Part shown: piece by piece, positions 1 through 3,000 of the stretch
How the letters are laid out: every line of letters starts with the position of its first letter
Numbering within the stretch: the first letter of the stretch is position 1
Assembly (NCBI GenBank): GCA_038257035.1
Contig: JBBSJT010000007.1
Coordinates: 1-38,159, forward strand
Length of the DNA: 38,159 nt
Direction: 5' to 3'
Source of the DNA: Chlamydiia bacterium
Lineage (GTDB): Bacteria; Chlamydiota; Chlamydiia; Chlamydiales; Parachlamydiaceae
Program-made: the position numbers

Positions 1-3000
1 AGTCTTATGGAAATTGAAGATTTTCTTGAATACATTGCTTCAGAAAAAGGTCTTTCAAAAAACACAATCGAAGCTTATAGCCTGGATATCAATGCTTTAA
101 ATGACTATTTAAAGCTTGATTCATTTAATGATGTTAAGGATTCGCACATCATTGGCTTTTTATCAGATTTAAAATCAAAAAAGTATAAAAGCTCTACCAT
201 TTGTCGTAAATTCATTGCTTGCAAAGTCTTCTTTAAATTTTTAAAAAGAGAAGGTGTAATTAGTGAGGATCCTTGCTTTTATCTTGAAACTCCAAAATCG
301 TGGCAGCTCCTTCCTGACGTGTTAAGCGAAGATGAAATAAAGAAGATTTTTCTGCAATGCGATACTACCACTGCAAATGGTGCTCGAGATTTAAGTATTT
401 TAGAGTTGCTTTATGCAAGTGGCCTCAGGGTATCGGAGGCTTGTAATTTAAGTCTTTATGATGTTGATGATGAATTTGTAAAGGTGATGGGCAAGGGGAG
501 AAAAGAAAGGGTTGTTCCAATTGGTAAAAAAGCAATTGATGCAATTGATTATTACCTTGTTCATTTTAGGGATGCCCAAAAAAACAGCCGTCACGAAAAG
601 CTTTTTGTCACTCAATCCGGCACACCTTTAAGTCGTATGACTATTTTCAACATCGTTAAAAAATATGCCAAAATGGCAGGAATCACAAAAAATGTTTCCC
701 CGCACACTTTTAGGCATTCTTTTGCTACTCATTTATTAGACCATGGAGCGGATTTACGCATTATCCAAGAGATGCTAGGTCATGCCTCCATCGGAACAAC
801 CGATCGCTATACGCACATAAGTCGTAATAAACTCCAGGAATCCTTCAACACTTTCCACCCCCACCCATAGCCCCCTTATTTTTACCACTGAGAGCACAGA
901 GAAGGAGTGATACCGTTGTGGATGCTTTTTTTACCGCGAAGACCGCGAAGAAAGACGCGAAGAAGCGCGCTAACGCGCGACAAGAAGTAAGAAGAAGCAA
1001 GAAGAAGCGCAGCTTATGCACGGTGAAGAAGAATGTAAAAAAAATTCTGTTAAAAGAAAGTTCTTTAGATTAGTATGTAAGCCAAATTATGGAGTTTATA
1101 TGGAATTATTAGTAGCTGATAAATTGGATCAGGATACAGAGACGCTAATTAAAGTTATCATTGGGGCTGCTATAGATGTGCATCGCGAGCTTGGACCTGG
1201 TTATTTTGAAAAAGTCTACGAGCAAGCTATGGCATTAGAGCTAAGATCACGAGGTTTATCATTTGCAATGCAAGTTCCTGTGGCCGTTTGCTATAAAGGT
1301 GAAAAAATTCATGGTCAGATTTTGGATATGGTTGTCGAAGGAAAGGTTATTTTGGAATTAAAATCTGTGGAGATGCTTTTACAAGTTCATGAGGCTCAAA
1401 TAATTTCTTATCTTAAATCAACAGAAATACCAGTGGGATTATTAATAAATTTCAAGGAAAAGTGGGTTAAAGATGGTATCAAGCGGTTTATCCATAGCAA
1501 GAGTTAATTATCTCTCTTCATCGCGGCATAAGCCGCGCTTCTTCTTAGCTTCTTCGCGTCTTTCTTCGCGTTCTTCGCGGTAAAAAAAGGTAAAAGAATG
1601 TGTATAATAAAAAAAGACTCTTTGTTTACTTGACGGTGAATGAGGCTTGAGGGCAAAAAAAAAGCCCGGTAGTCAAAGACCACCGGGCTTTTCAAAGGAC
1701 TACTTTTTAGCTGCAGTAGTTTTCTTTGCTGAATCTTTTGTTGATTTTTTTGCTGCTTTTTTAACCATTTGGAAACTCCTGTTTTTTTGTTTGGGCAATT
1801 TTTTTTGCCTCTAATTTGACAATATGAATTTAAAATATTTAATTAAACTTATTTTTATCATTTTTTTTAATAGAGCATGAATTTTTACCAAAAAGCTGAT
1901 AAAAAAGGCACCAACTTGCAAGCGATTCATACAGCACAAAAAGGGCCAAAAAACCAATAATCCAACTATTCTGCCAAATCGCTACTGCAAATAAAAAATT
2001 AGCGATGATAAAACGAATAATTCGATCTTTGGCTCCGATATTTTTTTGCATAAATAACCACGTTTCCATATAAAGGGTTTAAATCGATGTTTTTAATTTA
2101 ATTATCCATAAGTGAATTATAGCACAAAAAAGGAAAAGGTCAAAAGATGCCTAATGAAAAGAAGAATTTTTTGTTAACAGCGGGTAGAGCCCCTTCAACT
2201 CTTGATTTAGCAAGACAGTTGAACGCTGCAGGCCATCAAGTTTTTGTTGCAGATACAACTACTTGGCATGTTTGCAGAGGGTCAAATGCAGTGAAGAAGA
2301 ATTTTGTCATTCCAAGCCCTCGTTTTCAAACAGAAAATTTTATCGAAGCACTTATAAAAATTATTCAATCAGAAAAAATCGACTATTTAATTCCAACTTT
2401 TGAAGAAGTTCTTTATATATCTTCACATTTGGATAGTTTTCCAAAAACTTGCAAAGTATTTAGCTCATCTTTTGAAACATTACTTCGTTTGCACAATAAA
2501 TGGTTTTTTTATGAGGAACAGGTGAATGCCGGCATCCCGGTTCCTGAAACATTTTTAATAGAGAAAAAGGAAGATTTAAAGCAGCTTGATCCAAATTCAA
2601 GCTATGCTGTAAAGGCAAGTTATTCAAGATCGGCACAATCTATTTATAAGGTTGAGCCAGGATCCACATTGCCGGATATTGAAATCGAGCCGCATAACGC
2701 ATGGATTGCTCAAAAGTGGCTTGAAGGAAAAAGATATTGTACTTACAGTATATGCGAAGATGGAAAGGTTTTGGCTCATGCAACATATCCTGTTCAAATT
2801 GCAATCCAAGGCCATTTTTGTTTAAACTTTGAATCTGTTGACCATCCTGCTATTTTAGAATGGGTGAAAAATTTTATTAAAATAGAAAATTTTACAGGCC
2901 AAGTGGGCTTTGATTTGTTTGAGGATGAAAATGGCGTTGTTTACGCTATAGAATGTAATCCAAGAGCTACACACGGTTTGATTTTATTTAAAAACTCCGA

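Follow-up and report, generated by a model that had tools for sequence, protein, structure and literature searches.

A GxxExxY nuclease gene framed by long hairpin arms, and its probable gene-less relatives, in a genome of the Parachlamydiaceae

We analysed a window of 38,159 nucleotides (contig JBBSJT010000007.1, here C7) from an amoeba-type chlamydia, a Chlamydiia bacterium of the Parachlamydiaceae. A small gene of the GxxExxY family, encoding a protein with a PD-(D/E)xK nuclease fold, sits in the predicted loop of a long hairpin at 925–1589, the arms of which consist of a T-run, the trinucleotide ACC and tandem units of the type (N)CGCGAAG. The site of insertion is the 3′ region of xerD, ahead of a terminator-like site. 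We consider it somewhat probable that it is the gene-bearing member of a class of hairpin-armed GxxExxY cassettes and that about 90–110 gene-less hairpins of the same genome are its non-autonomous relatives; the mechanism put forward for their spread is one that we infer. Such cassettes are apparently a widespread and undescribed kind of hairpin-forming selfish DNA, and literature searches, which covered journals outside subscription, returned no published description of the cassette or of chlamydial hairpin families.

Results

Anatomy of the gene-bearing element

The host gene upstream of the cassette (7–870, plus strand) encodes a tyrosine recombinase of the XerC/XerD type (PF00589, E 1e-47; PF02899, E 1.5e-19). 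The cassette starts 55 nt past its stop codon and has the same strand as xerD. The spacer that follows the xerD orthologue in the congener G002 measures 410 nt, against 854 nt here, and the cassette is missing from it. Outer modules, recognised by reading the sequence, precede the left arm at 881–924 and comprise a T-run with ACCACTGAG/CACAGAG units (881–905) and a TACCGTTGTGGATGC module (909–924). They differ between the left and right sides of the cassette, and modules of this kind are also found outside many other copies.

The left composite arm (925–1021; inverted repeats I1 and I2) is built, from the outside inwards, of a T-run at 926–932, ACCGCGAAG-type units at 933–966, a small GC sub-hairpin at approximately 964–982, an AAG-rich stretch and an inner arm at 999–1019. 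The right arm (1520–1589), defined by its sequence and inverted repeats, mirrors the left one but is without approximately 34 nt of it. The terminal inverted repeats 925–966 and 1548–1589 pair over 42 nt with 98% complementarity, and a second pair of arms is formed by 999–1019 and 1526–1546. A blastn comparison of 915–1600 with its own genome gave up to 224 matches for the ends, the left arm included, and 1 for the interior. The initial annotation, which had described a 680-bp copy with the ends of a dispersed family around a GxxExxY gene, is borne out in this respect.

Downstream of the cassette, an A-run, a GC hairpin and a T-run succeed each other at 1660–1692 (inverted repeat I4, with 15-nt arms that are 93% complementary). 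This arrangement suggests a bidirectional terminator, so that the cassette would lie between the xerD stop codon and that site. A scan for the sigma-70 consensus found no promoter-like site within 800–1800. Among the GxxExxY loci with callable neighbours, the upstream gene is co-oriented with GxxExxY in 29 of 34 cases and the downstream gene in 33 of 38. Both observations suggest that the GxxExxY gene would rely for its expression on read-through from the host gene in front of it. The ORF-bearing intervening sequences (IVS) of 23S rRNA have the same architecture, with a small ORF enclosed in a stem that is formed by terminal inverted repeats and contains short tandem units; the cassette is situated in the 3′ region of xerD and in no 23S rRNA helix.

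The GxxExxY protein

The enclosed gene (1100–1507, plus strand) matches PF13366 (E 1.8e-40) and TIGR04256, GxxExxY (E 1.3e-40). Its product had been given as 163 amino acids. The most likely start is the ATG at 1100, which yields 135 amino acids, because a GGAG ribosome-binding site is found at 1091–1094, 5 nt ahead of this codon on the plus strand, and homologues of 135–138 amino acids begin at the residue encoded there. The residues G34-E37-Y40, D76, E86, K88 and Q100, which correspond to the invariant columns of 56 sequences, are present. With the catalytic residues D76, E86 and K88 intact, the nuclease looks functional.

The PD-(D/E)xK fold is also apparent in the AlphaFold2 model (pLDDT 91.8), the structural neighbours of which are all nucleases of the restriction-endonuclease fold, among them BpuSI (Z 8.0), Cas4 SSO0001 (Z 7.3) and Hjc (Z 6.4). 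These VIA-align neighbours are generic PD-(D/E)xK proteins only (Z ≤ 8.0); Foldseek gave no match at E ≤ 0.001, and no solved structure related by sequence was found. The family is very large, with 3625 matches in the homologue search. In a survey of the PD-(D/E)xK superfamily, PF13366 is entered as 'unknown' (PMC3424549), which counts against our preferred reading.

A second GxxExxY paralogue is encoded on contig C17. It shares 46% identity with the C7 protein and lies between arms of CGCAAAG units. Its sequence is 71% identical to that of a protein from genome G087, the locus of which has 150-nt CGCAAAG arms. Two pairs of paralogue and arm, C7 with CGCGAAG and C17 with CGCAAAG, coexist in the genome.

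Gene-less copies in the window and orthologous sites

One gene-less copy (6203–6436) starts at the stop codon of an aconitase-type gene. Alignment with G002 shows an empty site at this position, and the RNA of the copy is predicted to fold with −117 kcal/mol (z −10.1). The copy at 7735–7995 is degenerate, being recognised by a self-inverted match of 73% and by matches to other copies, and holds one exact end 9-mer, at 7758. A further copy (13020–13265) lies in a spacer of 362 nt that measures 128 nt in G002. The copy at 17330–17640 contains a private loop module of two small hairpins, which recurs in the copy at 20345–20660; the spacer corresponding to the former is approximately 390 nt shorter in the congener G001, where the latter has no counterpart. 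The remaining copies are found at 28150–28405 (core 28177–28380) and 31490–31695 (core 31516–31667).

The element is missing at four of the four orthologous sites checked in G001 and G002; these congeners, only about 70% identical, are too diverged in the spacers for the intergenic junctions to be matched at single-base level and a target-site duplication to be defined. Of the public runs listed, none of RNA contains the stretch. A freshwater relative, X2, which is about 88–92% identical in genes, also gave depth on the elements, but no clean empty-site joint. Contigs from the source sample break or cross-join at the elements, with different copies joined through their arms. Comparison of junctions in genome G136 showed that copies there are embedded in further repeat modules.

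A diverged family of hairpins

The dispersed family of long hairpins reported earlier is real. The 9-mer ACCGCGAAG occurs 130 times on the forward and 131 times on the reverse strand, against 2.65 expected per strand. Searches with a 27-nt pattern reproduced exactly the 129 sites previously counted at up to 2 substitutions, as did folding of the DNA at C12 2336–2671 the value of −142.0 kcal/mol. The elements are, as claimed, richer in G+C than the genome (46.8% versus 36.05%). The number of copies, put at about 155, is lower on recounting: when a complete locus is defined, by our own criterion, as a pair of left and right ends, the family comprises 112 loci, of which 90 are complete hairpins and 22 have a single end.

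Gene-less copies are mostly extragenic, prefer the 3′ ends of genes and follow the upstream stop codon by approximately 49 nt. With crude, ORF-based gene calls, 28 of 78 placed elements lie between convergent genes versus 256 of 1643 junctions, an enrichment that agrees with the earlier one (43/118 versus 273/1951). As extragenic inverted doublets that form hairpins in many dispersed copies, they have the form of REP/REPIN elements. Their arms match those of 925–1589 at 95–96% over approximately 45 nt. Only the arms, without the flanking loop sequence, are common to gene-less and gene-bearing copies, so derivation of the former by internal deletion is not supported. The GxxExxY cassette on C7 is the sole gene-bearing copy with CGCGAAG arms in the assembly.

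The initial annotation proposed a very recent burst. Between a copy and its nearest neighbour, identity is 81% at the median and at most 91.8%, and no copy reaches 95% (88/89 elements); by this measure the copies here are old and diverged. The arms are unusually long and layered, and the copies are modular mosaics that vary in the numbers of units and sub-hairpins. Both arms of one element agree at a variable dinucleotide in 38 of 90 cases, against 19.4 expected, an observation that we list against the preferred reading.

A k-mer anti-diagonal scan revealed approximately 390 palindromic loci in the genome, which contains at least five sister hairpin families. For three of these sister families, B, C and E, the assembly contains no copy with a gene, which counts against the preferred reading. 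Two candidates for other hairpin-bounded cassettes were rejected: on C121 a LOG-family gene is merely placed between two complete CAGTGAG hairpins, and the candidate on C152 is a gene for an F-box protein. A search of nine loci against Rfam at E ≤ 1 matched microRNA hairpin models of plants and animals and nothing else, and no match reached the gathering score of its model.

The features of the family raise the question of whether any dedicated enzyme is needed. Recombination between palindromes, or slippage between them during replication, could have dispersed and rearranged the elements, which would have been kept at gene 3′ ends because they are harmless or because they stabilise RNA, offer sites to RNase III or terminate transcription. 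The hairpin around the gene would then be only its IVS-like frame for expression and processing. We regard this scenario as unlikely, though it accords with the mosaic structure, the age of the copies, their joining through arms in the source sample, and their placement behind stop codons and between convergent genes. It also accords with the presence of rnc in the genome and with the helix-45 IVS of Coxiella burnetii, which has an S23p ORF, a 28-bp stem, tandem heptamers and cleavage by RNase III (PMC4990558). Against it, the presence or absence of the element at orthologous sites demands some form of dispersal, and a protein without another known role has retained its conserved catalytic triad. 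An excess of G.U pairs on the sense strand is also lacking in the gene-less copies: the asymmetry of G.U versus A.C is weak in cassettes (147 versus 113, p 0.04) and absent from the gene-less copies of this genome (128 versus 116, p 0.48), so selection on an RNA hairpin is not supported.

Transposases and outer ends

The family had been classified as a miniature inverted-repeat transposable element (MITE). The inverted repeats and the absence from the four congener sites agree with that assignment. In the strict sense it is not supported: the assembly contains no transposase between CGCGAAG ends, as the initial annotation itself had cautioned, and the likeness of gene-less to gene-bearing copies is confined to the arms.

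A classical MITE would have been moved by an IS630/Tc1-type DDE transposase with a TA target, its gene lost or missing from the fragmented assembly, and GxxExxY would be only cargo. The outer ends give this explanation some substance: TACCR on the left and YGGTA on the right are found at 33 and 43 of the 90 elements, where random 45-nt windows have them in about 5% of cases, yet the motif is present on both sides in only 17 of the 90. TA lies just outside 13 of 31 left and 18 of 40 right outer ends, and the palindrome at the aconitase stop extends to TA on both sides. The cassette of genome G182 is indeed cargo, as had been suspected, in an IS630 element of 1760 nt that is present 20 times. 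The ends of that element begin with TATACC, but their likeness to the ends found here amounts to six bases. Neither a DDE_3 gene nor anything matching the transposase of G182 was detected in the assembly, which is 95.8% complete and divided into 210 contigs with breaks at repeats, so a hidden gene is possible. The same arm design is common to GxxExxY cassettes of many phyla without an adjacent transposase. We judge this explanation improbable. Genome G120 has a 1566-nt unit with an IS5-type transposase in 17 copies. That multi-copy GxxExxY genes of other chlamydiae ride in insertion sequences counts against the preferred reading.

The genome also holds seven loci for Y1 HUH (RAYT) transposases with the Y1_Tnp domain, which are intact on C29 and C105, broken on C119, C25 and C7 (10608–10945), and further present on C48 and C68. 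Inverted REP-like hairpins lie on either side of these loci, and one of the enzymes might have moved the CGCGAAG elements in trans as REPIN-like sequences. One REP beside the C29 gene has a TACCGC/GCGGTA stem, and a T-run with ACCGCGGAG is reminiscent of how the CGCGAAG arm begins. Hairpin design, extragenic placement and preference for gene 3′ ends are likewise those of REP/REPIN elements in a published description (PMC3116915). Each Y1 locus, however, has its own, different repeats, and no CGCGAAG unit occurs within 800 nt of any of the seven; the C29-type REP is found only 3–4 times in the genome, and GxxExxY is the only gene between CGCGAAG arms, here and in genomes G035 and G136. Mobilisation by a RAYT is the least credible of the explanations considered and seems very improbable.

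Arm design and gene association across bacteria

The association of the gene with inverted arms is pan-bacterial. Eighty GxxExxY loci from many phyla were collected, of which 5 were left out for short flanks; inverted arms with a score of at least 30 were found at 55 of the remaining 75, compared with 4 of 75 in a reversed control and 17 of 75 in a direct-repeat control. The arms are tandem units of the C-N-C-N-N-A-G type, 7–9 nt long, and start sharply at TT.ACC after a T-run. Among 29 chlamydial loci, 4 of which were left out, 16 of 25 have such arms versus 0 of 25 in the control. The C7 cassette combines the features of this design, with an intact motif and D..ExK residues, T-run/ACC tandem-unit arms, gene-less copies, and sense orientation without a promoter-like site.

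Protein clades and arm units are concordant. On a tree of 52 proteins the arm-unit label changes 25 times, against 29.3 ± 1.2 after shuffling, and 4 of 1000 shuffles reach 25. The closest homologues of the C7 protein, from G035 (65% identity) and G136 (61%), belong to two other chlamydial families and have CGCGAAG arms as well.

The pattern CGCGAAG-N1-3-CGCGAAG was found in 23 of 201 genomes of the order, with 341 matches in G136, 128 in G128, 53 in G035, 29 in G095, 25 in G052, 16 in G018 and 13 in G060; counts for the reversed control were near zero. The claim that the element is specific to this species stands within the family, where the congener G002 has no match and 2 of 11 other genomes have a single match each, but fails at the level of the order and for the arm design as such. 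With this one included, 8 chlamydial genomes, each from a different family, have CGCGAAG-unit hairpins in abundance. A GxxExxY gene is present in 8 of 8 genomes with at least 10 pattern matches versus 58 of 193 others (Fisher p 1e-4); the 8 genomes come from 8 families, yet as kin are not fully independent.

These counts point to bursts that took place independently in 8 chlamydial families. Genome G136 contains at least 20 gene-less hairpins whose 42-nt arms match those of its gene copy at 95–100% identity. Near-identical arms at so many loci and multi-copy bursts in 8 families both speak against a spread without any dedicated enzyme. Against the preferred reading, five of the 8 burst genomes (G128, G095, G052, G018 and G060) showed no CGCGAAG-armed GxxExxY gene among the 10 loci examined.

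Discussion

The arms and the gene-less copies give the GxxExxY gene the mobile-looking context that had been claimed for it. We propose that the nuclease would have as its substrate the hairpin or cruciform into which its cognate arms fold, or else the vacant site, and that repair of the break or copying from a template would then spread the element, much as a RAYT serves its REPINs. The gene-less hairpins would be mobilised in trans. At the RNA level, RNase III may cut the long stem, as it does in ORF-bearing 23S rRNA IVS.

A wider proposal, which we put forward tentatively and hold to be rather doubtful, is that hairpin elements of a new, pan-bacterial class have GxxExxY proteins as their dedicated nucleases, a partnership that would be the PD-(D/E)xK counterpart of RAYT/REPIN. 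Each clade would recognise its own unit (CGCGAAG for C7, CGCAAAG for C17), bursts would have occurred independently in at least 8 chlamydial families, and ORF-bearing 23S rRNA IVS would be special cases. If true, this would explain the origin of such IVS and of the short tandem 7–9-nt intergenic repeats of many bacteria.

For a family without an assigned function, the cassette provides a defined DNA partner. The two paralogue-arm pairs of this genome and the near-identical set of a gene plus 20 copies in G136 supply substrates, cognate as well as non-cognate, on which the proteins could be tested directly. Despite an intracellular life, environmental chlamydiae appear to carry several families of hairpin DNA that are active or were so until recently.

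Comparison with known systems

Bacterial MITEs derived from IS630/Tc1 elements are small, non-coding, multi-copy and intergenic, have inverted ends, and are present or absent between relatives. The CGCGAAG family shares these traits, and some of its outer ends carry TA. It differs from them in having no parent insertion sequence with these ends in the assembly, and in that the whole element is one long hairpin, where a MITE has two short terminal repeats.

The likeness to REP/REPIN-RAYT systems extends to a single-copy gene flanked by its own inverted palindromic repeats, to many extragenic gene-less hairpin doublets with a preference for gene 3′ ends, and to distinct gene clades with distinct repeat types in one genome (PMC3116915). 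The enzyme of the cassette, by contrast, is a PD-(D/E)xK protein and the RAYT an HUH protein, and the arms of 70–150 nt, made of tandem 7–9-nt units behind a T-run, are unlike the short, GC-rich REPs. This genome has true RAYT/REP systems as well, and they are separate from the CGCGAAG family.

The ORF-bearing IVS of 23S rRNA, known from Coxiella burnetii, Leptospira and others, resemble the cassette in that a small ORF without strong expression signals of its own lies in the loop of a long stem, with tandem heptamers in the arm just ahead of the ORF; they are viewed as selfish and possibly as remnants of transposition, and RNase III cleaves their stem (PMC4990558). Contig C166 of the present genome has a gene for an IVS protein (PF05635) between inverted arms of 8-nt units. 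The cassette differs in its location at the 3′ region of a protein-coding gene instead of in rRNA, in its PD-(D/E)xK ORF (PF13366) where that of the IVS encodes a four-helix bundle (PF05635), and in its approximately 100 dispersed gene-less copies.

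Structure of the GxxExxY Cassette

As described in the initial annotation, region 915–1600 contains a pair of inverted arms that enclose a GxxExxY open reading frame. The outer arms, at 925–966 and 1548–1589, span 42 nt each and are 98% complementary, and a second pair (999–1019 and 1526–1546) lies inside them. The reading frame matches PF13366 (E 1.8e-40) and the TIGR04256 model 'GxxExxY protein'. Because a candidate ribosome-binding site, GGAG, is found at 1091–1094 and the homologues have 135–138 amino acids, the gene start is placed at ATG 1100, which shortens the product from the 163 residues first annotated to 135. 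The RNA fold of 915–1600 has an energy of -219 kcal/mol (z -9.5). A sigma-70 consensus scan of 800–1800 found no promoter-like site, and across GxxExxY loci the neighbouring genes lie on the GxxExxY strand in 29 of 34 callable cases upstream and 33 of 38 downstream; on these grounds, expression of the cassette looks dependent on read-through.

The protein retains all the family-invariant residues, including G34, E37, D76, E86, K88 and Q100, and also Y40 of the motif, which is nearly invariant in the family. Its AlphaFold2 model is confident (pLDDT 91.8). A search for a solved structure related by sequence found none, and the structural neighbours of the predicted model are generic nucleases of the restriction-endonuclease fold (BpuSI, Z 8.0; Cas4 SSO0001, Z 7.3; Hjc, Z 6.4). 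PMC3424549 lists the function of PF13366 as unknown.

Two further features were observed near the cassette. A 22-codon lysine-rich reading frame preceded by GGAG (1707–1775, minus strand) has a similar counterpart at the equivalent place in one congener (G002, L085 about 1490–1557), and an L20_leader match over it falls far under the gathering score. The end of contig C105 (6955–7168) is 91% identical to positions 1–214, the 5' part of xerD. It may come from another allele or strain, or may be a duplicate that has diverged and lies where the assembly breaks.

The CGCGAAG Hairpin Family

A blastn search of 915–1600 against the assembly (2,366,241 bases, 210 contigs, 36.05% G+C) gave up to 224 matches for the ends and one for the interior. 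Against an expectation of 2.65 per strand, the end 9-mer ACCGCGAAG has 130 forward and 131 reverse occurrences, which group into 112 loci, eight of them in the window. In 90 loci, left ends are followed by right ends and the outermost 9-mers stand a median of 205 nt apart; the other 22 have one end only and often lie at contig edges. The elements have a G+C content of 46.8%, and the RNA fold of a gene-less copy at 6203–6436 reaches -117 kcal/mol (z -10.1). The 129 pattern sites and the fold energy of -142.0 kcal/mol reported earlier were reproduced exactly. The hairpin family is real and interesting.

The arms follow a layered, modular plan that reads inward as a T-run, ACCGCGAAG, one or two more (N)NCGCGAAG units, small GC sub-hairpins and a variable loop. 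More inverted modules, such as TATACCGYT..GGGA, frequently follow on the outer side of the T-run, with CACCACGAAGA farther out. In 19 of the 90 complete elements, including those at 17330–17640 and 20345–20660, the loop holds a private module made up of two small hairpins, which has no copy elsewhere in the genome. This module is asymmetric and conserved; among the 15 elements holding both parts, 10 are oriented one way, four the other and one is unclear. The two arms of an element have a median identity of 0.87, compared with 0.77 between different elements, and agree at a variable dinucleotide in 38 of 90 elements (shuffles 19.4 ± 3.7, with a maximum of 35 in 2000 shuffles), differing in 52.

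Distribution and Age

The family had been taken for a species-specific and very recent burst of a miniature transposable element. Neither attribute is borne out, although the repeat family itself stands. The two closest homologues of the cassette protein come from other families, G035 (65%) being in one and G136 (61%) in another, and both have flanking CGCGAAG units. The pattern CGCGAAG-N1-3-CGCGAAG is present in 23 of 201 genomes of the order, with a reversed control elsewhere of about zero, and is abundant in eight genomes of eight different families: G136 (341 matches), the genome under study (240), G128 (128), G035 (53), G095 (29), G052 (25), G018 (16) and G060 (13). All eight carry a GxxExxY gene, versus 58 of the 193 others (p 1e-4, with kin not fully independent); among the fetched loci, a gene with CGCGAAG arms was found only in the genome under study, G035 and G136. 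The last also has at least 20 gene-less hairpins whose 42-nt arms are 95–100% identical to those of its gene copy.

As to age, the best neighbours of the gene-less copies are 81% identical in the median and 91.8% at most (88 of 89 elements; neighbour covering at least 80% of the length), and by this divergence the gene-less copies are judged to be old. The elements are absent at four of four checkable orthologous sites in the two congeners, whose genes are only about 70–75% identical; one of these elements begins exactly at the stop codon of an aconitase-type gene. A freshwater metagenome relative (genes about 88–92% identical) likewise gives depth on the elements. The elements lie a median of 49 nt past the upstream stop. 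Junctions between convergent genes are over-represented among their sites (28 of 78 placed elements versus 256 of 1643 junctions, by crude ORF-based gene calls; 21 elements fell within such ORFs and 13 at the edges of contigs).

Association of Arms with GxxExxY Genes

A GxxExxY homologue occurs in 66 of 201 genomes of the order, and arms of this design were found at 16 of 25 testable chlamydial loci (control 0). A second GxxExxY gene of the genome, on C17, has a degenerate CGCAAAG-type arm ahead and a full CGCAAAG hairpin directly after its stop; its protein is 46% identical to that of the cassette and 71% to one in G087, where the arms are 150 nt long and CGCAAAG-type. In a cross-phylum sample of 80 loci, 75 of which had enough flank, an inverted repeat scoring at least 30 spans the gene in 55 (reversed-sequence control 4, direct-repeat control 17). 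These arms begin sharply at TT.ACC and nearly always consist of about three tandem units of the type C-N-C-N-N-A-G, spelled CACAGAG, CGCAGAG, CACGGAG, CGCAAAG, CACGAAG or CGCCAAG. The link of hairpin arms to GxxExxY is general, and ACCGCGAAG reads as one more spelling of the design. On a poorly resolved tree of 52 proteins, the unit label requires 25 changes versus 29.3 ± 1.2 when shuffled, with 4 of 1000 shuffles reaching 25.

How the hairpin elements spread is inferred. The GxxExxY nuclease itself would be a candidate mobiliser, but the gene-less copies have only the arms in common with gene copies, and multi-copy GxxExxY in other chlamydiae travels within insertion sequences. In G182, a 1760-nt IS630 element with 20 near-identical copies (L176 1415–3174) carries as cargo a GxxExxY cassette with 36-nt CACAGAG-type arms, in keeping with an earlier caveat that the gene may be cargo. 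In G120, hairpin arms lie just within the ends of a unit of 1566 nt, present in 17 copies (L179 2097–3661), and enclose the GxxExxY gene together with a two-frame IS5-type transposase. Some elements have TACCR outer ends with TA beside them. As a test of selection at the RNA level, wobble-pair asymmetry was weak for cassettes (147 versus 113, p 0.04), and this genome's gene-less copies showed none (128 versus 116).

Other Repeats and Transposases

A k-mer palindrome scan gave 389 hairpin loci in the genome. The plan 'T-run, A(C)C, tandem units, loop, mirror image' recurs in at least four sister families: TACAGGATATGCA (25 complete loci), TACCAGTGAG/CAGTGAG (27), AACGCAAAGG/CGCAAAG (13) and AAAGGAC (18), with examples at C2 37952, C1 13049, C2 28539 and C3 9622. 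Among them, CGCAAAG alone is partnered by a gene-bearing copy, namely the GxxExxY gene of C17. A LOG-family (PF03641) gene at C121 4973–5950 (L120) was rejected as a cassette, as it merely lies between two complete CAGTGAG hairpins; the locus displays a dense filling of successive spacers by hairpins.

The assembly holds seven Y1_Tnp (RAYT-type) loci, each with its own short REP-like palindromes alongside and none with CGCGAAG units within 800 nt; no DDE_3 transposase was found in it. One of the seven, a broken gene in the window at 10608–10945 (matches 10608–10808 and 10805–10945, one stop and a frame change), lies inside a 767-nt inverted-repeat frame, 10333–11099, formed by REP-like hairpins that match over 77 nt and are unrelated to the CGCGAAG family. 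An intact RAYT on C29 (L122) adjoins a REP hairpin with stem TACCGC/GCGGTA, whose inverted copy has a T-run and ACCGCGGAG. Its similarity to the unit that opens GxxExxY-type arms could be fortuitous or could hint at a common recognition.

Comparison with Known Systems

Among hairpin-armed nuclease cassettes, a pan-bacterial type, the family is a chlamydial branch whose gene-less copies are old. Our search of the literature on GxxExxY and PDDEXK_3 found nothing about repeats. The closest published design is the ORF-bearing intervening sequence (IVS) of 23S rRNA. According to the part of PMC4990558 that treats it, the Coxiella IVS has a 28-bp terminal stem cut by RNase III, with tandem heptamers just ahead of the S23p ORF, and is proposed as a transposition remnant. 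An IVS-type cassette outside rRNA was observed on the minus strand of C166 (L003, about 470–891), where a PF05635 gene (23S rRNA IVS protein/four-helix bundle) lies between inverted arms of AATTCCAA units. The closest published logic is that of REP/REPIN elements with their RAYT, as outlined in the pertinent part of PMC3116915.
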